In this document: positions 4,397 to 37,527 of the stretch, one piece after another
Layout: each line of letters starts with the position of its first letter
How positions within the stretch are numbered: position 1 is the stretch's first letter
DNA from: a virus
Length of the DNA: 64,000 nucleotides
IMG/VR virus record: IMGVR_UViG_3300049844_000277
Coordinates: 36,520 to 100,519 of that record
Direction: 5' to 3' (one strand)
Notes under the pieces: model-generated
The model's database searches: none
Told to the model about the DNA's origin: nothing
The model's input: the letters and a program-made list of their open reading frames with translations, nothing else
Position numbers and translations under genes: made by a program

Positions 4397-7180
4397 TTAC
4401 CCCCGATATACGCTAGGGTCGTTTTGATTTCGAAGAACCAGAGTATTCTGGTTAATCTTCAAAATTAAATCACCCATTCCGCGGAATGTCGAGCGCAGAT
4501 TATCTTCCAGGGAAACGTAAGCAATGTCTCCGACATCACCCTTAATTCGAGTCTCATCCATCCAAAGAGTGAGTAAAACCCGCCCTAAGTTATCCAGAGA
4601 TTTCTCAAGATTAGGGAGATAGCCGGCAACCATTTCCTTAATCGCCGGAGCTTGGGCCATTGATGCCAGCGCTGCAGCGTCAAACGTGCCCGCGTCGTTA
4701 AGCTGCCCCGCTTGCTCAATGAATTGCGGATTCACCTGAGACTGGACGGTATCCACCGAACCGTCATCCGCTGCCATCATAGCTTGCGGAGGCTGCTGCT
4801 GCGCCTGAGCATTAGGGTCAGCGGCCATTTGAGCATTAGGGTCCGCACCCATCTGCTGCTGCGGTGCAGCCATTCCTTGAACCGGCGCGCCTGCGCCCAT
4901 CATCGACGGGTCCATTGGACCACCCATCGCAGCTGCCGCTGCGGCGGGAGCAGCTCCGGCTCCCCCGCCACTAGCAATCATACTCGCCCGCTGCTGGATG
5001 GCTTGAACCATCTGCTGCATTTGCGTCAAAGCCTGCATCTGGCTTTGAATGTTCTGCATCTGTTCAGCGACCGCCATATCAACGGGCGACGGACCTTGCG
5101 GAGGCTGCATCTGCGCCATCTGCATCTGCTGCATCGCGGCCTCAGCGGGATCGGCTTGCTCAGGCTGCTTCTCGGCGGCGCTCTTAGCGCGGCTCCGGAA
5201 TCCGGATTCCATCTTAGCCATGCTGTTGAACCGCTCCCCTGCCTGACGTGATGTCTCGCTAGCGCCGGGCTTGGAGAGGCGGGCCGAGGGCTCTTGCATC
5301 TTGCGAAGAACCGCTGAATCAGCGCTGCGTACTTTTTCAGCGATTACTCGGGGATCCCTAATTGACGTACGGTTCTCAGCAACGCTCAGCCGAGCCGCCA
5401 CCTTCTCCAACTTCTCCGGCTCAATAATCCAGAAAGAATAGTTCCCCTTCTCCGCCGCTTGCTTCAGGGCAAACTCAGCGTCATCAACAGAGATGACCGC
5501 GTCCGTTGCCAGCTTACGCAACGCTGAAACGAAGTTTGGCGCGTACTCACCAGAGATATTGAAACCATTCTCTCCGGTGTACTTCGACACCTTCACCTTC
5601 TCCGCGCCTTCAGCCAACATAGCGTCGGTCGTCCAGCAGAAGATGCTCTTCGGCGTGGTGAGGAAATCGCGCTGCGTGAGCTCATTCTTGGTTGGAAACC
5701 AAACGAAGTTGCTCGGCAAATAGACAATGTCCCCGTGCGTAGGAATCATTAGCTTACTGCCAGGATATTTATCGTCAGTAACCAGCGTCTTCTTGCCCCA
5801 AGAACCAATCACATCGATCCGTCGACTACCCTCAAAATCAGAGGTAACTGAATCAATAGTAACCGGAGCCGTGGCAACAAACGATGCACCGCGACGCTGA
5901 ACAAAGATACCCTTCTGACCCTTGCGAGGACCTGCGGCAGACGCTTCACCAACAGCCTTCTTGAAGACCTCAGAGCCTTCAAGCTGACTCATCGCTACTT
6001 GCGTACCGAGAAGGTCCGTAGAATCTATGAGGTCGCCGTCTTCGGTAATACCGACGTAACGGTCAATATGAAACTCATCCCGATAGCCGTCCTTGCCAGG
6101 GACACGGTACCGCTCATTGTGGCCCTGCATCTCATTCGCAGGTGCTGCGTTTGAGGGACGGAAACGAATGTTACGCGAAGGAATTCGCTTACCTTCAGCA
6201 TCGCCGAATAGGTTGATGGGGTTCGCGATAACTAAAGCAACAACAGGCTTACCGTCGCGCTTCCATAACTTGTAAGCACCGGCATCCTTAGGCTCATGTA
6301 AATCAAGATACGGTTGAATCGCTACCGCGCGATTAACACGCTTACGGTCATCCTTGGCGTAATAGCCCTTTACCTTCACGCCTTGAAAAGCGGCGGGTGA
6401 CTTAGGCCCAAAGATGTCTTTGAATTCAGCGGACGTAGTCTTGTCGTCCGCGACATACAACGCGCCACCATGATTCTTGATTCCACCGCCGTAGTCAGCC
6501 GTTTTCAGCGCATCGACAAGCGGCTTTTCACCATAGAACCACACCGCTTGCTTGAGCAATCGGGGCCGCGTCTCAAGCATCTTGGCCGCAGCCTTCTTGA
6601 CGCGAGAGGGCGCATTGCTGAGGAAAGTTAAAAATGAAAGCTCAGGCTCAGTCTGATTTCGTGCTTCATCAAAGACACGACTCGCCTGCTTAACCGCACC
6701 AGAGACGTCCGAGGCATAGCTGTAACGTCCAGTCGTCGGAGGAACGACCGTATTACGAATGTCGACGTCCGTCGGCATCGTTGTGGGCGGAGTTACACCC
6801 TTGCCCATTTCACCCAGAGATTGCTTGTCCAACTCCTCCAACCAGTCTTTGGATAGTGGGACGAAGACATTCAGATTCTTGTAGTACAAAATGTCCAGCG
6901 GCTTAATCTGATTATCCGCCATCACAACAGGAACGTAGAGCGTCTGCCCTCGCCTAAGGATAACAAACGCGCCGACACCCGAGCCGTCATCGGGTGAAGT
7001 TTCCAGGACTTTGAATGTAACAACGTCCGGAGCAATATTGGGTAATTTCGAGAGGAGGACGTTGTACGCCATTTGGGAAAGACCTTGGTCGAACAAAGCT
7101 TTCGCTTGATCGCCGGTTCCTCCCAGCTGTCCCATCGCTTGCGTCCTAGGCGAAATCGCTGGCATGTCATCTCCCGACAA
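4397..7180 (-). CDS. Large hypothetical protein (927 aa), possibly a virion/structural component, with a central Q/M/A/G-rich low-complexity segment.
   Basis: Single long ORF. Residues about 640-790 are MQQMQMAQMQ.../AAPAAAAAAMGG... low complexity, encoded by short direct DNA repeats (gagcattagggtc twice near 4806-4843). Confidence 0.6.
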   Translation of the reverse strand: MSGDDMPAISPRTQAMGQLGGTGDQAKALFDQGLSQMAYNVLLSKLPNIAPDVVTFKVLETSPDDGSGVGAFVILRRGQTLYVPVVMADNQIKPLDILYYKNLNVFVPLSKDWLEELDKQSLGEMGKGVTPPTTMPTDVDIRNTVVPPTTGRYSYASDVSGAVKQASRVFDEARNQTEPELSFLTFLSNAPSRVKKAAAKMLETRPRLLKQAVWFYGEKPLVDALKTADYGGGIKNHGGALYVADDKTTSAEFKDIFGPKSPAAFQGVKVKGYYAKDDRKRVNRAVAIQPYLDLHEPKDAGAYKLWKRDGKPVVALVIANPINLFGDAEGKRIPSRNIRFRPSNAAPANEMQGHNERYRVPGKDGYRDEFHIDRYVGITEDGDLIDSTDLLGTQVAMSQLEGSEVFKKAVGEASAAGPRKGQKGIFVQRRGASFVATAPVTIDSVTSDFEGSRRIDVIGSWGKKTLVTDDKYPGSKLMIPTHGDIVYLPSNFVWFPTKNELTQRDFLTTPKSIFCWTTDAMLAEGAEKVKVSKYTGENGFNISGEYAPNFVSALRKLATDAVISVDDAEFALKQAAEKGNYSFWIIEPEKLEKVAARLSVAENRTSIRDPRVIAEKVRSADSAVLRKMQEPSARLSKPGASETSRQAGERFNSMAKMESGFRSRAKSAAEKQPEQADPAEAAMQQMQMAQMQPPQGPSPVDMAVAEQMQNIQSQMQALTQMQQMVQAIQQRASMIASGGGAGAAPAAAAAAMGGPMDPSMMGAGAPVQGMAAPQQQMGADPNAQMAADPNAQAQQQPPQAMMAADDGSVDTVQSQVNPQFIEQAGQLNDAGTFDAAALASMAQAPAIKEMVAGYLPNLEKSLDNLGRVLLTLWMDETRIKGDVGDIAYVSLEDNLRSTFRGMGDLILKINQNTLVLRNQNDPSVYRG

Positions 7181-11750: not shown

Positions 11751-12380
11751 TTAAGTACCGGCTCCACGGGAACCTCCTTCACAGAACATCATTCGCCGTA
11801 GGTCATCAGCATGCTGCTGGTCAGTAAGGACCATTTGCTCCAGCATGACCTTAAGCGACAAATTATCTCCGGCCATGTCTGACAGATGTCGTAACTCTTC
11901 AATCAATTGCTTCTCAGTTTGTAGAAGAGTCATGAAAATCTGGTGGAGGTCACTCATGTTCGGGATGACACCTACCTTAGGAATAGGTTCTCCGCCTAAC
12001 GCCGTAATCTTCATTGCGAGATGGTAGGCGTCCATCCGCTCTTCTTTGATGTGCTCTTTAAAGTGGTCGTAGATAACATCTCTAAAGTGCGCACGAATAC
12101 GATCGCCATAATTCATATACATGAAGATGATGGTATATTTGTAGCGCAGCAACTTATTACACTGAGCCACTACCTTATCCTGGGCAACCGCGAAGAATCC
12201 TTCCTCGGCCGATACAGCAAGAGGATGAGCACCAGCAGATGCTGTGGCAAGCGGAGGCATGGCGAACATCTCCTCCGTGTGCGGGGATGACTCCATTGTG
12301 TCCGCCATTGGACTGCTAGGAACTGGAAGACTCGAGCCACTCTCAGCCATGGAAGTACCCACTTTGTAGCGCTGCGTCAT
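11751..12380 (-). CDS. Ferritin-like (bacterioferritin/Dps-fold) four-helix-bundle protein.
   Basis: KEERMDAYHLAMKITALGGEPIP matches the EExxHAD.L.ERI..L.G.P helix-B pattern of bacterioferritin/Dps. C-terminal LEQMVLTDQQHADDL matches the ILESEEEHIDYL pattern of the last helix. Confidence 0.5.
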   Translation of the reverse strand: MTQRYKVGTSMAESGSSLPVPSSPMADTMESSPHTEEMFAMPPLATASAGAHPLAVSAEEGFFAVAQDKVVAQCNKLLRYKYTIIFMYMNYGDRIRAHFRDVIYDHFKEHIKEERMDAYHLAMKITALGGEPIPKVGVIPNMSDLHQIFMTLLQTEKQLIEELRHLSDMAGDNLSLKVMLEQMVLTDQQHADDLRRMMFCEGGSRGAGT

Positions 12381-15300
12381 GTACCCACCTCAACTCGAGT
12401 ATTGAGCGTAATCTCCCCGCGCTTATAGGCGGCGAGAGCTTCTTCTCTATTTTTGAAATGGCGTACTTTATCGTTCGCGGAACTCTCGGCTTTGGACGCC
12501 AAATGTACCCCAAGCATAGCTTCCATTCGTGGCGCTACCATCAAGCTATCTTTTTCACGGTCCGAGAATAGAAGGTTTGAGAGAGTCATCCCCTTCACTT
12601 CATCTATCGCGGGCTTCAGTACGGGAACGTGGATTTGGAATGTGTCCCAAACTACGAGGCCGTCGTTGACCGCGAAAATTTGTGTGTCAGGAACAATAAG
12701 GTCATAGACGGTTTCTTTTCTTAATACCTCGACCGACTCTACTAGATCCCAGGTAATTCCAACGTTCTCAACGATCCTTGCCCAAGCATCGACATCTGGT
12801 GTTTTGGCCGTCCGGAAAAAATGCAACATACGCCGAGCGTTTTGCCTCGTAACGTATGGAGCCTCTTTTCGTTTAGATCGTAGCGTAGCCAATGATGCGC
12901 AGAACGAACTATCTTCCGCGCACGGACCAGTACGGCTGGAGGCGAGGGTCATTAGATTTTTAGGAACAGGAACAATATCCACCTGATCCACAAGTTCATC
13001 AGCTTCTAGGAGGTTCAAAGCCTCCAAAGATTTAGAGTTGTTCCAAATTCCTCTACGAAGCCAGGACACGTTACGCTGGAGGTCTACGGTACTAATAGGT
13101 ATCGTATAAGCTACAGCTTTTTGGAGACGTCCCTCCTTCGGATATGCTTCGCTCACAGAACACCGGACGCCGATAGTTTGTAACAAAAAACGTAATGAAG
13201 CTGCTAACGCAGCAGACGACGTGTGAAGGGCGGCCATCACTTGAAGTTTTGCCTTACCGGCGCTGACAGTGAGTGTACCGTCACCGTTCAACATTCCGAT
13301 GAGCACACCCCACCGAGCCTCCTCAGACCAGTCCCCAAACGCTGGCACGCGTTTCGAGAGACAAGAGCGTCCGGGTACCCTCTCATCTAAGTAACAAGTC
13401 TTGAACAGCTCAACGCACTTCTGCGCACCACTAAAGTGGTCTTTGATACTTTGTCCTGTTATTCCGTTAGATGCGTCGTGTACCTCACGATACGTATTTC
13501 GCTTAATGAGCTTACCCTCAAACGCATTCACCGCGGCAGCAAAGCGTTCACGGTGCACGTCACTAACTTTCGTGTACCCGAAATAATGATCGGTTTCACC
13601 CAGTAAGAAACCGTCGGACAAGAATGCGCCGACCATCCATCCAAACTCAAAATCCCCCTGTGACCCCGTTAACGGTAAATGCCGCACAACCGGAGCTAAC
13701 TTTCCAACGGAATCCGAGGGCGCTGTTGCTTCGATCTGACCTGTTTCATGGTTATAAATACACAACGACTCATTCGTCGACGCCGTAACGCTTAAACCAC
13801 GACGCATTTCTACTTTCGCCACTTCGCATCCGTCTTCAATCGTAAGTCCTGTCACCGGGGACATTACTGATTTACTTGCGGAGTGGTCGTAAGAAAGAAC
13901 GCGAAAACCCTCCGGAACGGCGTAACTGCGAGCACCATTCTTGTCGATACTATAGGGCTCCTCAGCGTGTGGAATCTCTTGAAGCTCCGCTTCCACCAGC
14001 GCCTGTACCGCTGAGGTCCAACAAACACGAGTCTCTGCCGCGAATTTCATGGCTGTCTCCTTGGCTTCATCGCCAAGGAGCGCTTTACAAGCCGCACCTT
14101 CTGCTGTCAACACAACTTTCGTCGAACCCAAGAAACAGTTTCCATCGTAATCCGCATTGAAGCCAAGCTCTGCGAACGGATTTACGCGAATCGTCTTCCC
14201 CGCAACAGGGACGGCGTGAGCGCCAATAAACCCGTACCGGTGGAGAGTCGGAGCGCGATTCACCATCACCGGACGCTCCTTAATCTCCGCCATCAACGCG
14301 TCGTGCGCTGCCGGATGTTTCTTTTCCAACATCTCTTTCGCTTGAATGGCTCCGAAGCCGCGACGGATAAGGCGTGAGATAATAAACTTCCCGTACATGC
14401 CCCAAAGCATGTCTATCGGAATACCTATCTCATCCATGCTCAGAGAGCCGTCTGGAGCTATGGTTCCGCGGCCGGAGATATCTTGCTGCCGCTTCATTAT
14501 TCGTTTTTGGAAAAAGGAACTGTTCCCCGATACGGAAGGTTTACCGTTACGGCGAACAACTACAGTACCATTAGGGACTGTCACACAATACACGGTTCCT
14601 TTGTACGGGTACGCCTCGGTAAAAGAGCCCGACTCAATGGTGACATCAGAAAACCCCCGCACAGAAAAAAGATAATGCGGGAGATGGTGATCCTTAACTG
14701 GCGGACAAATTCCTCTAAAAATAACTTGGTAACCTATTTTTGCAGCGAGATGCTGTAGGTCATCAATTAATTGTAAACTAGCGGTACCGGCGTGAGCACT
14801 CAGCGGTTTACGCCGATAATGGGTTTTCGGGTTTTTCACGTTCTTCGCTAACGAAGGGTGAAGGGTTCCATCTCCACGCAGATATCCGCGCAATAATCCC
14901 TCTAACATAGCAGAAGGCCACGCTAAAATATCTGAAGATAAGTGTTTACTCTCGCACCCACGCCCGCAATGATGCGTTAACCAATCCGCCAGTGAGCGTA
15001 ACCTAATAGTCCACCAGATTACCTGGTATCCATCTTTACGCGTATATGTTTTGCGTACAAAGGGAATATCCAATTTTTTAAAGCACAAATCCACCGCGCG
15101 AACGTGTGGAGACGTTGCGGCTTGACACAAAGAAACCTGGGTTCCTGTTGTGGAAATCCAACCTTCCGCAATCCACCAACCTACAAACTCCGCAAAGGCC
15201 AAAGGATCTGGAGTAAATGTTCCTACTAAATTAGCCGTACGCCGTTTTTTGTTATCCGTAGAAACTTCACACGTATCTCCCGCGAAAACCAACTCCGGAA

Positions 15301-18300
15301 AAGTACCCTCCCACTCCTCAGCGCTAACCATTACCCTCCGGCGGTCCGTGCCTATAAAAGTATCCGCGCGTACCTTTTCCCACGGAGTCCAGACATAGAG
15401 CGCCTTACCGTTACTTACGCGCTTACGGCGATACGAGACTACATGTTCGTGGTTAGGTGTTACACATAAATCAAGTTCACGGCTGCGCGTATGTATCAGA
15501 TCTCCGTCGAACGGCATGGATACTAACGCGGTCGGCTTCTGCCATTCAAATTCCCGGGTGTCTAAGTTAACCGTAGCGACACGAGTTTTTCCGGTGTACT
15601 TAGAAAAACGAACCCACCCTTTTTCTGTAAGAATATCTGTTTGATCATCGTAACATTTTGGCGTAGTTTTCCCGGTAATATGCTCGAGAAATCCCTTTAC
15701 GTTTCTCTTTTGGAGTTTGGGGTTATCTGATTCGTGCGTACCAATCACGGCGCCTACCGCGTGAAACAAGTTCTGACGAAGCTTCGCTTGTTCATCCGGC
15801 GGAAGAATTGGAGATTCAATTTGCTTCCGTAATGACTGATTATGAAGGATAGCGCTTTGGTACAGGTAGTTCGAATCACCTACTACGAGCTCAGAGCCAC
15901 TCTTCCCCGGAAGAATGGGTCGCATTATTGGAGGAAGAACAGGCAACTTGGATAGGACGTACGCATCTCCCGGCTTGAGCTCCTGCCGATTCAGCGCCTC
16001 AAGGAACTTCAACTGCTTTACTGCGTCATCTAGCTTCGTACCGGAGAGCGACTTAATAGAGTTACGGAGCTCCGCGATACGCGCCTTAACGTCGATAGCG
16101 TTAAGCTTTTTCTTTACCGCAGCGCCACCATTCGTATGGTGATACTGGTCAAAATCTTTCGCGGTCATCCCCAGCAAGCGACGGGCAGGGTCGGCGAATA
16201 CAGGATTTACAACGGGCTCGGCGAGCTCAATGTGGCTCCACCGTGTTCCAGTGGTACCGCCAGTAACCGCGGGGTCAAACAATCCCCCACGTTCAGCGGC
16301 CAAATCTTTAGCGCGTACTAACTTCTCATTTTGTACTTCGCCAGATGACATCCGTAGAATGTCTTTATCGGTAAGCGGAGAGAGCGTGCTGATACTTCCA
16401 CGCGAATCAACTTTGACCCCTGCGCCATGCAGCATACCGATGAACTTGTCATAAACGAACGACGACTTGAGTGGAGGGAGAGGCAGTCCCAGCTGAATCG
16501 CCCGCCAGAACTCATCGTTCTTCTGGCTCTTAATAGCCGCCGTCTCTCGAAGCACGTTCCGCGCATTATGTGCAACGAGGGCATTGAACTCCATTTTACC
16601 GACGGCTTTCGCGCCTTCGTCACCGCCCTTAATTGGCTGCTGATTAACGTCGTACGCACCCGTACCGCGCGCGGCGTAGTTGGTCTCCGTGGTCTTAAAC
16701 AAGCGAAGTACGTATTGCGGCCCAACCAGGATTCCCGGAATCTTTTTACCCGACACAGGGTCTATCAGCGTTTCCTTGTCCTTGACCTTGTGCTCCTTCA
16801 GTAAATCCTTTGCCCACTGTACGTTGTCACGCCCTGAAAAGTTTTCAACGACAATAGGTTTACCGATTTTCTTGGCAACCTTAGCGACACACGTCTCTAG
16901 TATTTGCGACGGATTGATTCGGGAAATTACGCCAGCCGAGGTATACAAAACCTCAATCGGCTTACCCGTCTCATCTTGAAGCATCTTGTGATCGGGAACA
17001 ATAAGGGAAACAACGCCCTTGTTTCCGTGGCGTCCTGTGTTTCCGCACCATACTGATTTACCATTTCTGCGAACATACAAAACATGTCCAGGAACAGTTA
17101 CACAGTAAACTGGTGATTTGTACGAATCTACAAAACATTCCACCTGACCCTTCTGTCGTTTGATATGTCCATGATTCACAGTAGGTGTTAATTTCGAATT
17201 AATAATTCGTACCTGCCAATAATCACGACACCAAAAATCTTTACCTTTGATTGTTTGATACCCTTCAGCTTTCGCTAACGACACATTAGCAGCTTTACCA
17301 ATATGTAGTGCGAGACGCTGAACATCATCCGCCAAACGTTTGGATGTTGTTTTGTAGCATATCGGTTGGCCATTTTTAGTATGACCGTCACCCCACATCA
17401 ACCAGTTGAATAGCGTCTCTTGATCCGCTCGAGACCAAGCGAACACCTCAAGCGGGATAAATTTCTCGTAAGACTTACCGAACTGTTTAAAGTACTGCCA
17501 ATATTGCTTGGAATGAATACGAACCTTATCACCTGTGTCCGTGAATAAAATCCCTTCCTCACGAAGAAACTTTTCTAACTGTTTTCGATTTGGCTGATTA
17601 ATTTGCGTAATCTCTATGCCGTAAGTACCGGATTCTTCAATCGTAATGAGATTACCTTCAGATAAAAACGCACCGAGAAGAGCGGCTAAGGTTTTAGTCG
17701 GAAGCGCTTTATCATCTAAAACACGTAAACCCCGGCCCCCTTGTCCCGCGCGCACAGTTATCGAGTCAAATACAAACGACTCAGGAGAGTGCCCCACCCA
17801 AATCCCATCCTTCTTATAACTGACCCTTTTTCCTGCGATTTCATACGCCGGTAAAAGTTGGAAAGATTTCTCGTTGCGCGGTTGAACGTACATATGATGT
17901 CCGTCGGTCACAAACAAATCTACCTGTTGTGATTCGATGCGGTACATCCGTCCGCCTTCTGGATACGAATGAATTGCGTCGGGCTCTAGGTACTCGATAT
18001 TTTCGCCATTCTGTAACGTACAAATCTTATCCGTAATACGTACATCCGCTATCGGTTTCCACCCTTCCCACGTGAGAACCTCAGTCTCTGCATCATAACA
18101 GAGCTTGTCTCCGACGCGCATCGGCTCACGGGTCTTAACCGTTACAACGACACGCTTGTCCGTCACATAAACATCCATGACTTCACCTTCGAAGTCGTGG
18201 TCCCACGTACGAACAAGTTCCCGATACGGCGTAACTAACGTCTTCTTTAGGTTACCGAGAAGCGCATCAGACGCCGAAAGTTTACCTCGTGTGACTCCAG

Positions 18301-34143: not shown

Positions 34144-37100
34144 GTGCCCACAACCCGAGGAGCTCTCATGGAGAAGCCCGCAGAAATCTGCAGCGGATGT
34201 CCTCGAGAAATCGAGACAGAGACCCATCCCTACGGTTATGTTGAATCGTGGATTGATTCAAACGCCGAACTCATCATCATAGCGGAAGCTCCTGTCTGCG
34301 ATCGCCACGGTAACGTTCCTAGCTCTTTCGACGATGACAGCGGTAAAATCATTCGAACCGCCGTATCCGAGCTACGTAACTTACCTTCGCACAGTAAGCT
34401 AGCGGTCTCGTATACGTACGCAGTACTCTGTACAAGCAACCAGGGCGACAAAGACCCCGAAAAAGCCGTACTGCAACGGTGCCGTACGCTGCTCCAAGCT
34501 GACTTACGTCGCGCAAACAAGAACGCCGTCCTGCTGGTAATGGGTATGTCTGCCCTTCGCGCACTAGAAATAAAAGCCGCGAAGTTGAAGGACATGCAGG
34601 GGCGATTACTCCAAAAGCAGAAAATTGGAGAAGGTGATGACGCTCCGATATTCGATGTCGTCGTAACCGTCTCGACAAAACAGTTGTTCGCGATGCCGGG
34701 AATCTACACGACGTTCGTAGCGGACCTGCGACGAGCTGCGGACGCTGCGAGCGCAGGTGGATTAACACACGTTACCCCACTCGAAAAACTAACCGAAAAA
34801 TACGTAATCCCGAAAACAATCGAAGAAGTACGCCAAATCTGTCGCGAAATACTGAATTATCAAGAAGGTAAAGTATCTGCAGATAACTGGCCTATCTCTG
34901 TAGACACCGAGACAAACACCAAGTTTCCACACCGAGAAAACTTGAAAGTATTGGCGGTGTCCTTCGCATGGGCGGAGGGTAAAGCTACTGCAATTCCATT
35001 AGAGCACCCCACTACACCCTACGCGTACCAAGACGCGATACCGTACGTACGCGAAGTCTTAGCGAGCAAGAAGCCGAAGTTCCTTCATAATGCTAAGTTC
35101 GACCTTAAAGTCTTCATGAAAGCGGGCTGGCCGATTAACGGGTTCGCTTGGGATAGCATGCTAGGGGAACATGCTCTCGAAGAAGATAAAAAGGGACAGT
35201 ACGGATTAAAGCAGTTGACCCGTACTTTCTTCCCGGAATTCGCGACATACGCCGACTCTCTTCAAGAAATGCTCACGCACGAAGAGGGCGACTCGCAGCT
35301 CGACAACCTGAGGAAAGCGCCAAAAGCTTCAACTTCGAAAGATGGGGGATTTGAAAGTATCCCACTTCCCACGCTATTGCTTTATGCGGCAGTCGATGCA
35401 GATATGACACGGCGGCTAGTGTTACTGCAGGAAAAAAGAATTACCGACGAGCAGAACAGAGTAATCGTAGAAACGAATATAACGAAGAGAGAGCAGGCGC
35501 TGGCGATTTCGGCGAGGAAGAAAATACGGCTGAGAATTGCGCCGCTACATAGTGAGACGGAGATGTTGAAGAAGTACATGGTGCTCTACCCCGTCCCAGA
35601 ACTCTGTTCCGCTGATAAGCCGGTAAGACAACTAGTACTGAACAACGTATTCCCCGTTACCCCAGCTCTCGCGAGAATGGAGTTTAAGGGCATACGGATA
35701 GACAGACCGTACCTAACTACGTTGCGTGAAGCGTTGGGAAAAGTCGTCACAGAAACCGCTGCAGAGCTACAGGATATGGCGGGCAGAGAGATAACTCTCA
35801 ATAGTCCGGCAGAGATAGCTGAAATCCTGTTCAACAGCGGGTTTATACATCCAACAACTCACGCCCCCACGACTTATCCCCTCACAGGCATCGGTAAGAC
35901 AAAAACGGGACAGATACAAACCACCGAGAAAGTGATGCAGTACTTGGTGGCGAAGTATCAGTGCCCCTTTGCAGCTAAAAAACTAATCTACGCCAAGGCA
36001 TATAAAGCGAAAAATACGTTCTGTCAGAATGTGTGGGATCTCTCGGAGCTCGACGGGTATCTACACACGAACTACAACCAGCACGGCACAAATTCGGGTA
36101 GACTGTCCTGTGTCGCGGGAGAAACCGTACTAGATACTAATTACGGAAAAATCGAGATACAGAATCTCGATCTGGAGAAGATGCCGGGGATTACCATCCA
36201 GACCCACGAACTCCGCGAACAACCGATTCTACGTAAAATAGAAAAAGGCATTGAAGAAATGTTCGAGGTCGAACTCGAAGACGGGCGCACCATCACCGTG
36301 ACTAAAAAACATCGCTTCTTGACGCCGACGGGGTGGAAACGACTCGAGGAACTGTCAGAAAATGCCGAAATACTCTGCGCCGCCTCCGTGGGTAGTGGAC
36401 CAAATATGCGACTCGTTACAACCCGGATAAAAAGCATACGTCCCGTAGGTCCTAAGAAAGTCTGGGACCTCACAGTAGCGGTCGATCACTCTTACATCGC
36501 CCACGGATTTGTTAACAAAAATTCCAACGATGAAAACATGCAAAACATCCCCAAGAAATTGGCGGGTGTTAACATTAAGAAAGTGTTCCTCCCGGACGAT
36601 GATTCGTATGTCTTCGTCAACGCTGATGCGAAGGGTGCCGAAGTACGAATCCTAACCGCCTACTGCCGAGACCAAGCGCTCATACAATCGCTCAACGCGG
36701 GGCAGGACACGCATTGTTTCATCGCGTCCAAGATTGTTGAAATCGTACGTCAGAGTCCTGGTGCAACGGCGGTTCTCGGAAGCATGAATCTAAGCGATGA
36801 GTATCCTCTGACGTACGAAGACTTCGCGGCTAGAGACAAGCTAAAAGAAACCAATAGTAAGTACGGGGCGATGCTCGACAAATTCAGAACCGCTGTCAAA
36901 CGCGTAGTGTTCGGTATTCTGTACGGCGCCGGTCCTCAGAAAATTGCGGAAACTATTGGTATCAGTCTAGAGCAAGCACAACAGCTCATTCACACTCTGT
37001 TCGCTTTGTTTCCGTCCATCAAGACGTACATGGCGCAGACAAAGTGGGAACTACAACAATTTAATTTAGTCGAAACGTTCTTCGGTAGACGCCGTAGATT

Positions 37101-37527
37101 TAGTGTATCGGGAGCGCCGAAGTATCAAATAGGGAGAGCTGAACGTCAGACAGTTAATTTTAAAATCCAAAGCACAAGCTCTGATATCGTAATGGGACGA
37201 TTACTAGCAATCGAAGAACCTCTCAAAGATTTGGGAGGTAGACTTCTATTGACAGTGCACGACAGCCTTGGGTTTCAAATCAAGAAAAAATATATCCGAC
37301 AGCTACCTGATTTCATTTATACGTATTTGGAGAAGGGTGCAGCAGACGCCCATCCATGGCTCCCAGTCGCATTTAAATGGGACTACGAAGTTGGGTCATC
37401 ATACGGCGAACTCAAATCACTGGAATCCTACCTTGCCAACACGAAAATAGAGGAATACTCGAACGATGCCTACGTCGCCGAGGCTTTCACAGAAGAAGAC
37501 GCAAGAACCTCCCTCTCCGAACCCTGA
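34144..37527 (+). CDS. polA: Family A DNA polymerase (Pol I-like) with a 3'-5' exonuclease domain, interrupted by a mini-intein.
   Basis: - Exo I: ISVDTETN.
- Exo III: YAAVDADMTRRL.
- Pre-motif A GRLS//SNDENMQNIP matches GRLSSSDPNLQNIP.
- Motif A: FVNADAKGAEVRIL.
- Motif B: RTAVKRVVFGILYGAG.
- Motif C: LLTVHDS. Confidence 0.9.
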   Translation: MPTTRGALMEKPAEICSGCPREIETETHPYGYVESWIDSNAELIIIAEAPVCDRHGNVPSSFDDDSGKIIRTAVSELRNLPSHSKLAVSYTYAVLCTSNQGDKDPEKAVLQRCRTLLQADLRRANKNAVLLVMGMSALRALEIKAAKLKDMQGRLLQKQKIGEGDDAPIFDVVVTVSTKQLFAMPGIYTTFVADLRRAADAASAGGLTHVTPLEKLTEKYVIPKTIEEVRQICREILNYQEGKVSADNWPISVDTETNTKFPHRENLKVLAVSFAWAEGKATAIPLEHPTTPYAYQDAIPYVREVLASKKPKFLHNAKFDLKVFMKAGWPINGFAWDSMLGEHALEEDKKGQYGLKQLTRTFFPEFATYADSLQEMLTHEEGDSQLDNLRKAPKASTSKDGGFESIPLPTLLLYAAVDADMTRRLVLLQEKRITDEQNRVIVETNITKREQALAISARKKIRLRIAPLHSETEMLKKYMVLYPVPELCSADKPVRQLVLNNVFPVTPALARMEFKGIRIDRPYLTTLREALGKVVTETAAELQDMAGREITLNSPAEIAEILFNSGFIHPTTHAPTTYPLTGIGKTKTGQIQTTEKVMQYLVAKYQCPFAAKKLIYAKAYKAKNTFCQNVWDLSELDGYLHTNYNQHGTNSGRLSCVAGETVLDTNYGKIEIQNLDLEKMPGITIQTHELREQPILRKIEKGIEEMFEVELEDGRTITVTKKHRFLTPTGWKRLEELSENAEILCAASVGSGPNMRLVTTRIKSIRPVGPKKVWDLTVAVDHSYIAHGFVNKNSNDENMQNIPKKLAGVNIKKVFLPDDDSYVFVNADAKGAEVRILTAYCRDQALIQSLNAGQDTHCFIASKIVEIVRQSPGATAVLGSMNLSDEYPLTYEDFAARDKLKETNSKYGAMLDKFRTAVKRVVFGILYGAGPQKIAETIGISLEQAQQLIHTLFALFPSIKTYMAQTKWELQQFNLVETFFGRRRRFSVSGAPKYQIGRAERQTVNFKIQSTSSDIVMGRLLAIEEPLKDLGGRLLLTVHDSLGFQIKKKYIRQLPDFIYTYLEKGAADAHPWLPVAFKWDYEVGSSYGELKSLESYLANTKIEEYSNDAYVAEAFTEEDARTSLSEP
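36109..36522 (+). mobile_element. Intein 5: mini-intein (138 aa, no endonuclease domain) in the DNA polymerase.
   Basis: - Starts CVAGETVLDTNYGKIEI.
- Ends VWDLTVAVDHSYIAHGFVNKN with +1 Ser.
- Boundaries codon-verified (tgt at 36109 = Cys; aat at 36520-36522 = Asn). Confidence 0.8.

Follow-up and report, generated by a model that had tools for sequence, protein, structure and literature searches.

A phage RNA polymerase gene with three predicted LAGLIDADG inteins and an asparagine rule at its catalytic Mg2+ motif

The RNA polymerase locus and its three inserts

Within the window, the whole stretch of viral DNA analysed here (64,000 nucleotides), the precursor of an RNA polymerase (RNAP) is encoded by a single ORF of 2836 amino acids in which beta is fused to beta' as far as approximately 90 amino acids beyond the Mg2+ motif. 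The ORF contains the Pfam domains Rpb2_3, Rpb2_6, Rpb1_1 and Rpb1_2 and matches the NCBIfam models rpoB, rpoC and fused beta/beta', which together with Rpb1_4 and Rpb1_5 in a partner ORF account for the beta and beta' core domains of a multisubunit RNAP. The two ORFs lie in the same order in the relative L094. The 2836-residue product represents the main catalytic chain of a multisubunit-type RNAP of a phage. Its homolog in the nearest cultured relative, Arash gp206, is packaged in the virion and is the protein that mass spectrometry of virions found most abundantly (PMC10585845). The ORF is interrupted in frame by three inserts (354, 378 and 498 amino acids, 1230 in total), the remaining 1606 amino acids comparing with approximately 1600 in intein-free homologs (P0004-P0009 and others). 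A non-intein InPase domain is also inserted in beta within this ORF. The features are as follows, a slash marking each extein-intein junction:

12377..20887, minus strand: RNAP precursor, single ORF of 2836 aa
9086..10885, minus strand: separate ORF of 599 aa without an intein, remainder of beta' (Rpb1_4 / Rpb1_5), part of the same RNAP
17039..18100, minus strand: intein 1, 354 aa, in beta, residues 930-1283, GDKL/CYDAETEVLT...RRNGKSVWCGN/TGRHGNKG
17894-17911, minus strand: block B of intein 1, VTDGHH
17651-17680 and 17381-17404, minus strand: LAGLIDADG motifs of intein 1, ending FLSEG and WGDG
14522..15655, minus strand: intein 2, 378 aa, in beta', residues 1745-2122, GKTTPK/CYDDQTDILT...RRNGKPSVSGN/SSFFQKRIMKR
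15446-15463, minus strand: block B of intein 2, VTPNHE
15158-15187 and 14864-14887, minus strand: LAGLIDADG motifs of intein 2, ending WIAEG and RGDG
12644..14137, minus strand: intein 3, 498 aa, in the Mg2+ motif of beta', residues 2251-2748, NADYDGN/CFLGSTKVVLT...VYDLIVPDTQIFAVNDGLVVWD/TFQIHVP
13763-13792, minus strand: block B of intein 3, SVTASTNESL, with Glu at the expected His position
13607-13636 and 13274-13303, minus strand: LAGLIDADG motifs of intein 3, ending FLSDG and NGDG

The initial annotation, made from the sequence alone, had placed three large inteins at 12644-18100, occupying around 1230 of the 2836 residues, and both the coordinates and the sum proved exact. As it had also proposed, all three begin with Cys, the nucleophile pairs at positions 1 and +1 being C930/T1284, C1745/S2123 and C2251/T2749, and each carries two LAGLIDADG (DOD) motifs with their acidic residue. 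LAGLIDADG_3 (PF14528) matches all three (intein 1, E 9.5e-9; intein 2, E 1.3e-4). AF2 models of inteins 1 (pLDDT 90.9, pTM 0.91) and 3 (pLDDT 86.4, pTM 0.83) predict with high confidence the Hint fold that had been suggested as a check, and their best Foldseek matches include solved inteins, namely the TliVMA intein 7qsu (E 3e-15), PI-SceI and PI-PfuI, together with the Hedgehog Hint domain, for intein 1, and the TliVMA intein 7qss (E 1e-17) and PI-PfuI 1dq3 (E 3e-17) for intein 3. Structural matches to I-DmoI, I-SceI and I-OnuI agree with a monomeric two-motif endonuclease of the alpha-beta-beta-alpha-beta-beta-alpha fold. Intein 2 is a paralog of intein 1 (BLASTP E 5e-17, full length), and its Hint fold is covered through this homology, models having been made for inteins 1 and 3. 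The inserts share with PI-SceI (Sce VMA1), PI-PfuI and Tli VMA a bipartite Hint domain hosting a two-motif LAGLIDADG domain, Cys1, Ser or Thr at +1, conserved host motifs and a patchy distribution. These features support the view that each of the three is an intein with a LAGLIDADG homing endonuclease domain and that each interrupts a strongly conserved motif of the RNAP core.

Inteins 1 and 2 are canonical, with Cys1, block B TxxH (TDGH and TPNH), a terminal Asn and Thr or Ser at +1; within their family, which is common in phages, the TxxH Thr is nearly invariant and the His invariant. They end in Gly-Asn rather than the His-Asn of class 1 LAGLIDADG inteins, absence of the penultimate His being a known variant (PMC4031507). 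Intein 1 resembles, over its full length, inteins of Corynebacterium phage P1201 thymidylate synthase, Lak phages and the Gordonia phage GMA6 terminase (25-30% identity, E down to 1e-28), although hosts and sites differ, being here GDKL/TGRHGNKG of RNAP beta and GKTTPK/SSFFQ of beta'. Inteins are known from the archaeal RNAP subunits Mja rPol A' and A'' and Nph rPol A'' and from eukaryotic or viral RPB2, RPA2 and RPC2 (PMC1635734). These likewise occupy the most conserved active-site-cleft positions of the two largest subunits and need to splice before assembly, but their hosts are cellular organisms or eukaryotic viruses whereas here the host is a fused beta-beta' RNAP of a bacteriophage. The window also contains a portal intein of 427 amino acids (23269-24549) and a DNA polymerase A mini-intein of 138 amino acids (36109-36522), which bears out the earlier count of five inteins in 64 kb.

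Occupancy among relatives, selection and probable homing

The inserts are absent from Arash gp206 and Vibrio phage D181 in the alignment, and among close relatives they are missing singly or all together, all three sites being empty in some with 80-85% extein identity. At least one insert is present in 83 of 121 RNAP homologs, in which the GDKL site of intein 1 is filled in 49 and empty in the others, the DxDG site of intein 3 is filled in 36, and the TTPK site of intein 2 in only four (the gene studied here, P0010, P0011 and P0030); the site map of these homologs includes three further insertion sites. Some homologs carry mini-inteins without an endonuclease at the GDKL site. Intein-free alleles were therefore found for every site, and carrying an insert is not the conserved condition. 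In D181 the homologous RNAP gene is broken up by a free-standing gene for a homing endonuclease.

In comparison with the syntenic L094, synonymous sites are saturated (pS approximately 0.8), while pN is 0.29-0.32 for the inteins and 0.08-0.14 for the exteins, values that indicate purifying selection on both; the ORFs have stayed intact. The patchy occupancy in close relatives, the mini-inteins at the GDKL site and the strict linkage of an Asn codon to intein 3 (see below) lend indirect support to homing by site-specific cleavage of the empty allele and gene conversion, as proposed from the location at conserved core motifs. During a mixed infection the endonuclease would cut an intein-free allele at the conserved motif, and repair would then copy the intein together with adjoining extein codons.

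That the inserts are instead permanent lineage-specific RNAP domains, in-frame introns with endonuclease ORFs, or assembly chimeras is very improbable. Lineage-specific insertions do occur in RNAP large subunits, the InPase domain in beta of the same ORF and the interrupted D181 gene being cases that would favour such readings. Against them stand boundaries exact to the residue, each insert starting with Cys, finishing with Asn or Asp and being followed by Thr or Ser, together with the predicted Hint fold, the absence of stops or frame changes, the recurrence of the same inserts in many independent assemblies with the same synteny, and the endonuclease-free mini-inteins at the same GDKL site.

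Altered residues of intein 3 and the asparagine before it

The description of all three inteins as canonical, and of their C-terminal block as VYCVTVP...RRNGK...GN, holds for inteins 1 and 2 but not for intein 3, which ends VYDLIVP...NDGLVVWD and whose block B (VTASTNESL) reads S-T-N-E in place of TxxH. In comparison with class 1 LAGLIDADG inteins it has Glu for the block B His, Trp-Asp for His-Asn (or the Gly-Asn of inteins 1 and 2) and Gln/Lys for the block F His; it is thus without three residues that normally assist or carry out catalysis, namely His in block B, His at the penultimate position and Asn at the C-terminus. Its site had been given as the interior of NADFDGD. It does lie in this Mg2+ motif, but Asn directly precedes it at the place of the third Asp, the encoded RNAP reading NADYDG-N, the intein, then T, so that the host allele is without the third catalytic Asp codon. 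The two residues concerned are:

14138..14140, minus strand: Asn2250, codon AAC, -1 extein residue of intein 3, at the third catalytic Asp position of NADFDGD
12644..12646, minus strand: Asp2748, codon GAC, last residue of intein 3, homologous to the terminal Asn of the type III inteins described below

Searches with intein 3 returned 647 clusters at E < 1e-30, including 148 full-length members, 47 of which form clusters of its own type (type I; mutual identity at most 50%). All 47 have Asn at -1, Cys1, the block B motif S-x-N-(E/D)-S with Glu or Asp at B:10, Asp at F:4 and the ending (W/Y/F/M)-D followed by T or S, while the acidic residues of the two LAGLIDADG motifs are kept in 47 and 44 of the 47. 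Among 34 distinct type I DNA junctions, which partly overlap the 47 protein clusters, the Asn codon is AAC in 18 and AAT in 16, and Asn before Cys1 was read in all 27 junctions found via the block B motif. Asp occupies the third catalytic position in all 93 intein-free proteins (DYDGD), and uninterrupted loci in IMG/VR read DG-D-T in 81 cases and DG-N-T in none; since an intein-free Asn allele was not found, Asn seems disfavoured without the intein. Type II and type III inteins fill the same DxDG site yet keep Asp at -1. In the alignments, types I and II have their terminal Asp where type III has its terminal Asn, and the Cys1 of type I falls on the Ser1 of type II. The occurrence of Asn(-1) with the intein 3 type is a rule and not decay, and intein 3 belongs to a large, separate family that is particular to the DxDG(D) site of beta' and has altered catalytic residues. 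A tblastn search of 50,697 GenBank phage records gave no match to intein 3, and full-text literature searches found no description of its type.

Inteins with C-terminal Asp or Gln are known, including Pab and Mma Pol II, CIV RNR and others (cited in PMC4031507). By analogy with these the terminal Asp of intein 3 could still cyclise and cleave the C-terminal junction, but intein 3 adds the loss of the block B His and an obligatory Asn(-1) replacing a host catalytic Asp, a linkage with terminal Asp that we did not find in the literature on such inteins. Type III inteins are without a position 1 nucleophile, like class 2 inteins (Mja KlbA) and class 3 inteins (WCT, such as mycobacteriophage Bethlehem DnaB; PMC2807308) and unlike intein 3, which has Cys1. 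Type III fits neither class, because it has Asp at F:4 where class 3 has Cys, and Thr at +1 where class 2 has Cys.

Predicted splicing of intein 3 and the mature active site

We favour, at a probability of about 0.6, a reading in which three selfish Hint and LAGLIDADG inteins invaded the RNAP gene, intein 3 splices in a class 1-like manner and Asn(-1) is kept as an adaptation. Each intein would excise itself after translation with joining of its flanks, and, with every insertion site located in the catalytic core, the RNAP would become active only after loss of all three. Inteins 1 and 2 are expected to follow the class 1 route, from the Cys1 thioester through transfer to Thr/Ser+1 and cyclisation of the terminal Asn to the acyl shift. 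For intein 3 the best reading is a Cys1 thioester with the block B Glu in place of His, cyclisation of the terminal Asp and Thr+1, the terminal Asn of step 3 being replaceable by Asp or Gln (PMC4031507). Asp at -1 leads to premature N-terminal cleavage in many inteins, while Asn at -1 is slow (PMC11842431), and the isosteric Asn(-1) is most readily understood as an extein adaptation forced by intein 3 that avoids such cleavage. A few related inteins (P0093, P0104, P0108, P0196 and P0249) combine Cys1 with Asp(-1), and the incompatibility of thioester and Asp is therefore not absolute.

The predicted spliced product has the metal motif DYDGN-T (D-x-D-x-N). Published work describes the RNAP Asp triad as conserved universally and as the ligand of Mg2+ A (PMC13198411). 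The favoured reading sits uneasily with the three usual residues missing from intein 3 and with a DYDGN product that would be without the third Asp of this triad. The commonness of type I (47 clusters) beside the Asp-keeping types II and III would also be odd if the Asn were truly costly.

An alternative that we consider unlikely is that removal of intein 3 restores the catalytic Asp, giving a mature DYDG-D-T. This might happen if the activated Asn(-1) were converted to Asp during splicing, by cyclic imide or isoimide chemistry at either the thioester or the ester, or by an intein-catalysed deamidation using the conserved block B Asn-Glu and block F Thr-Lys, or if the excision frame were shifted by one residue (NC...W removed), so that the Asp before Thr+1 is kept. 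Asn and Asp indeed look exactly swapped between the intein-free DG-D-T and the type I DG-N/C...W-D/T, and taking out NC...W regenerates the intein-free sequence with its length unchanged. The invariance of Asn(-1) in type I (47 clusters, 34 junctions) and of Asp in the 93 and 81 intein-free sequences speaks in the same direction, as does the abundance of type I at a site shared with the Asp-keeping types II and III. Furthermore no extein position other than -1 was found to co-vary with type I, which leaves no sign of a compensating change. However, known intein chemistry offers no such reaction, and on our own chemical reasoning a C-terminal succinimide derived from Asn opens to Asn or isoAsn and not to Asp. 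In the shifted frame the intein would have to begin with Asn and be followed by Asp at +1, two residues that do not serve as splicing nucleophiles, and the canonical frame is the homologous one across types I-III, because the terminal Asp or Asn and Cys1 or Ser1 align.

Less likely still, intein 3 may not be productively spliced, being a splicing-dead endonuclease carrier or cleaving only at one or both junctions, and the RNAP would then be inactive, fragmented or mature only under particular conditions. The missing block B His, penultimate His and terminal Asn, the lost host catalytic Asp and a match to Pfam Intein_splicing (E 8e-6, 26.2 bits) under the curated cut-off of 35.8 would agree with this. 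Yet the odd residues together with Cys1, F:4 Asp and Thr+1 are invariant in the 47 clusters, which is the reverse of decay; within its Hint part intein 3 has pN 0.28-0.31 against pS 0.66-0.86 in the comparison with L094, and the surrounding exteins remain conserved. In addition, a second DxDG(D/N) motif was not found within the window, and from RNAP structures a 55 kDa domain retained in the Mg2+ loop would be incompatible with the active centre (PMC13198411, PMC1635734).

Were restoration of the Asp true, type I inteins would carry out a hitherto undescribed splicing reaction, and the third metal ligand of this RNAP would be made only by protein splicing. Retention of the Asn, which we judge likelier than Asp restoration, would mean that a natural multisubunit-type RNAP works with a D-x-D-x-N motif, itself unusual.

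Three inteins in a fused beta-beta' RNA polymerase gene

Three large in-frame inserts interrupt a single RNA polymerase (RNAP) ORF of 2836 aa at 12377-20887 (minus strand), in which Pfam recognises the domains Rpb2_3, Rpb2_6, Rpb1_1 and Rpb1_2 and NCBIfam the rpoB, rpoC and fused beta/beta' models, with scores all far under full-length. The ORF encodes beta fused to beta' and ends ~90 residues past the Mg2+ motif, the remaining part of beta' being encoded separately. The inserts account for 1230 residues, leaving an RNAP of 1606 aa.

Features of the window (splice junctions marked by an arrow; residues are those of the RNAP ORF)
17039-18100, minus strand: intein 1, residues 930-1283, 354 aa, GDKL↓C...CGN↓TGRHGNKG
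14522-15655, minus strand: intein 2, residues 1745-2122, 378 aa, GKTTPK↓C...SGN↓SSFFQKRIMKR
12644-14137, minus strand: intein 3, residues 2251-2748, 498 aa, NADYDGN↓CFLG...VVWD↓TFQIHVP
18761-19120, minus strand: InPase domain (PF18823, E 1.6e-32), residues ~590-709, inside the beta part
11751-12380, minus strand: ferritin-like ORF (PF00210), 4-base overlap with the RNAP stop codon
9086-10885, minus strand: ORF for the remaining beta' (Rpb1_4/5), co-directional with the RNAP ORF and a few genes downstream of it
23269-24549, minus strand: portal intein, 427 aa, LAGLIDADG, in ORF 22363-25374, RKANE↓CVSLDT...GGATKN↓SIALEH
36109-36522, plus strand: DNA polymerase A mini-intein, 138 aa, in ORF 34144-37527, NSGRLS↓CVAGETVL...GFVNKN↓SNDENMQNIP

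The initial annotation had read the inserts as three homing inteins, and we consider this correct: they are almost certainly inteins, and boundaries derived from the sequence are identical to those it proposed. Each insert matches LAGLIDADG_3 and carries two LAGLIDADG motifs ending in Glu/Asp, as had been claimed. Confident AlphaFold2 models built from family alignments were obtained for intein 1 (pLDDT 90.9, pTM 0.91) and intein 3 (pLDDT 86.4, pTM 0.83), and Foldseek searches of the PDB with both returned endonuclease-bearing inteins, followed by free LAGLIDADG enzymes and mini-inteins. The best matches were TliVMA (7qsu, 3e-15) for intein 1 and TliVMA (7qss, E 1e-17) and PI-PfuI (1dq3, 3e-17) for intein 3; PI-SceI was matched by both models and the Hedgehog Hint domain by intein 1. 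Intein 2 resembles intein 1 over its full length (24% identity, E 5e-17) and is its paralogue; intein 1 has further kin in other phage genes including the P1201 thymidylate synthase, Lak phages and the GMA6 terminase. Compared with L094, a syntenic metagenomic relative, the inteins show pN 0.29-0.32 and the exteins (the host-protein flanks) 0.08-0.14, while pS is saturated at ~0.8, so that dN/dS is unusable and only the pN/pS contrast can be read; low pN against saturated pS and intact frames indicate purifying selection on the inteins. The residue-exact boundaries, the predicted Hint fold and independent assemblies speak against introns, assembly artefacts and permanent insertion domains, and these readings are rejected.

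The initial annotation assigned canonical splicing blocks to all three, which holds for inteins 1 and 2 but not for intein 3. Inteins 1 and 2 are canonical, with Cys1, a Cys at the conserved position F:4, a terminal Gly-Asn and Thr or Ser at +1 (the first extein residue after the intein); their block B reads TDGH and TPNH respectively, the T being nearly invariant and the H invariant in the family. Both are new representatives of an intein family already known and common in phages, and are of little importance by themselves. The portal and DNA polymerase A inteins, the latter within the GRLSS..NLQNIP motif, also look canonical.

The closest cultured relatives of the RNAP are Salmonella phage Arash gp206 and its counterparts in Vibrio phages D69/D181 (~36-39% identity). 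Because gp206 is the protein most detected in Arash virion preparations (PMC10585845), the comparison suggests that the enzyme may be a virion-packaged early RNAP. The split-gene order is common to L094; in the window a ferritin-like ORF and three small ORFs separate the two RNAP ORFs. Megablast with window positions 9000-33000 (24 kb, RNAP gene included) found no near match in GenBank phage records. The InPase insert, an inorganic-pyrophosphatase-like domain, has no intein ends and is missing from Arash and D181; other relatives carry at this spot a PF00719 pyrophosphatase (P0006, P0038) or GNAT acetyltransferase domains (P0097, P0111, P0115). A PPi-hydrolysing domain inside an RNA polymerase is, to our knowledge, unusual. 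In Vibrio phages D181 and D148, small ORFs and a free-standing homing endonuclease gene part the homologous RNAP gene into two ORFs. This interruption, at 5525-6473 of the D181 locus and close to extein position ~500, is not an intein and may be due to an intron or to a split of the gene.

Patchy occupancy among RNAP homologues

To map occupancy, 120 metagenomic homologues and the window's RNAP were aligned to the spliced sequence, counting inserts of ≥90 aa. Inserts were absent from 38 of the 121 proteins and numbered one to four in the other 83, the inteins being spread over six to seven sites.

Occupied sites among the 121 proteins
GDKL↓ (intein 1 site): 49
DxDG (intein 3 site): 36
RTPE↓: 19
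TTPK↓ (intein 2 site): 4
VISR↓: 2
GKKW↓: 1

At the five non-DxDG sites the family inteins read C...GN↓S/T/C, except in a few rows with a slipped automatic boundary (e.g. P0020, P0073). All three inteins are missing from Arash and D181, and the nearest relatives, with exteins 80-85% identical, carry none (P0004-P0009), intein 1 only (P0003) or inteins 1 and 3 (P0001, P0002). The possibility that the insert-bearing state is conserved in all homologues, raised by the initial annotation as grounds for refutation, is thus contradicted by intein-free close relatives, and the patchy occupancy is the pattern expected of homing elements. Four relatives (P0044, P0091, P0099, P0120) have mini-inteins of 143-147 aa without endonuclease at GDKL↓, where others have 350-aa inteins, which fits the gain-decay-loss cycle of homing elements. 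The phage RNAP lineage of the window is exceptionally intein-prone. Known RNAP inteins, in archaeal A'/A'' and eukaryotic and viral RPB2/RPA2/RPC2, always occupy conserved cleft sites (PMC1635734), and a survey found few inteins in core transcription proteins (PMC4760082). Our literature searches found no paper on phage RNAP inteins at the window's sites or on any intein at DFDGD↓.

A family of inteins at the catalytic Mg2+ motif

Intein 3, inserted in the beta' motif NADFDGD (site 3), departs from the canonical set. Its block B, VTASTNESL, lacks the His, and its C-terminal block, VYDLIVPDTQIFAVNDGLVVWD, ends in Trp-Asp. The residue before Cys1 (position -1) is Asn, where intein-free homologues all read NADYDG-D-TFQIHVP, so that canonical splicing would give DYDG-N-T, without the third Asp of the triad by which every multisubunit RNAP coordinates Mg2+ A (PMC13198411).

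Judged by sequence, intein 3 belongs to a large family that is specific to its site and apparently undescribed. A profile of site-3 inserts, searched against 1.84 billion cluster representatives (50% identity clusters) with an E-value limit of 1e-30, matched at least 647 clusters; of the 150 matches listed, 129 span essentially the whole profile including the DxDG flank and the rest lack the N-terminal side. With the C-terminal 637 aa as query, a word-index protein search gave 9 matches including one new type I sequence (see below), and intein 3 had no tblastn match among 50,697 GenBank phage records. Proteins with site-3 inteins reach 3300-4739 aa and contain up to 5 profile-matching stretches (for example P0251, P0247, P0180); some metagenomic RNAP genes therefore hold many inteins together. 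Alignment of 148 full-length inserts to the profile separated three types.

Types of intein at site 3
Type I (the window): 47 clusters; -1 always Asn; position 1 always Cys; block B S-x-N-[E/D]-S; ending [W/Y/F/M]-D↓T/S
Type II: 13 clusters; -1 Asp; position 1 mostly Ser; block B mostly S-x-D-H-S; ending [W/Y/Q]-D↓T, with +1 once S and once C
Type III: 88 clusters; -1 Asp; position 1 Q/D/A/E/L and others, Cys/Ser in 4/88; block B T-D-D-D-P-(R)-A-V, without His; F:4 Asp; ending S-N↓T

Within type I the N, E/D and S of block B and the Asp at F:4 occur in 47/47, the block-F Thr in 45/47 and Lys in 43/47. Type III hosts comprise P0010, P0021, P0033, P0056, P0061, P0091, P0102, P0112, P0117, P0119 and 78 further clusters. 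Type III inteins match neither class 2, which has Cys at +1 where they have Thr, nor class 3, which has Cys at F:4 where they have Asp (PMC2807308).

The Asn of type I is a rule at the DNA level as well. In GTDB, IMG/VR and JGI metagenome loci, all 27 of the 27 junctions located upstream of a block-B motif have N↓C. Across 34 distinct type I DNA junctions Asn is encoded by AAC (18) or AAT (16), and the terminal Asp by GAC (16) or GAT (8); since both Asn codons are used and Asp is one transition off, Asn has been kept through synonymous turnover. Asp occupies the -1 position in each of 93 intein-free proteins, and IMG/VR contains 81 uninterrupted NAD[FY]DG-D-T..hH loci and none with Asn in place of the third Asp. 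Asn is not neutral, because it is wholly missing from intein-free alleles. A GTDB scan for type I inteins in bona fide cellular rpoC genes matched only 5 MAG contigs, of which the one examined whole, a 'Thermoplasmata' contig (L006), carries the same phage-type fused RNAP.

The fate of the third catalytic Asp

Excising 'NC...W' rather than 'C...WD' would restore the intein-free sequence exactly, as if Asn and Asp had been swapped. This exact swap could point to regeneration of the catalytic Asp on removal of intein 3, as could the abundance of type I beside Asp-preserving types and the lack of compensation: apart from the -1 site, no extein position co-varied with type I when a compensating acidic residue was sought. 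The 64-kb window contains no second RNAP Mg2+ motif DxDG[D/N]. The shifted frame, however, is without nucleophiles, an Asn-derived succinimide reopens to Asn or isoAsn, and we know of no splicing chemistry that regenerates Asp from Asn, making regeneration unlikely. The canonical frame is supported by alignment of the three types over their whole length, in which the Asp that ends types I and II is the homologue of the Asn that ends type III, and Cys1 that of Ser1. Working inteins that end in Asp rather than Asn are documented (PMC4031507). That intein 3 is a non-splicing or cleavage-only element is also unlikely, given that its non-standard residues are invariant and that a 55 kDa domain would be impossible to keep within the Mg2+ loop.

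We favour, with a probability of roughly 0.55-0.6, retention of the Asn through a class-1-like route. According to PMC11842431 (citing Amitai 2009 and Oeemig 2012), Asp at -1 leads in many inteins to premature N-terminal cleavage rather than splicing, and Asn at -1 is slow to react. The DxDGD↓ site imposes Asp at -1, and the three types may represent three routes round it. Type II mostly has Ser1, with its less reactive oxyester, and type III dispenses with a position-1 nucleophile; that the -1 Asp of type III itself acts as nucleophile, via a cyclic anhydride, is speculation. Type I keeps Cys1, with the extein Asp replaced by isosteric Asn and Glu in place of the block-B His. Avoidance of Asp(-1) cleavage appears the most economical explanation of the Asn. 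Intein 3 would then have forced a substitution at an invariant catalytic position of the host enzyme, the mature RNAP being D-x-D-x-N. The third Asp of E. coli RNAP touches only Mg2+ A (PMC13198411), and Asn as the third metal-site residue might be tolerated.

The site-3 family is bound to the motif that cellular-type RNA polymerases as a whole conserve best and has three internally conserved catalytic configurations, all off the textbook set, that of the window being invariably accompanied by loss of the host codon for the third catalytic Asp. If Asp is restored, the chemistry would be new to proteins, with obvious protein-engineering uses. If the spliced RNAP truly has Asn, it would be a natural test of the dispensability of that ligand and a clear example of a change in an invariant active-site residue forced by a selfish element.
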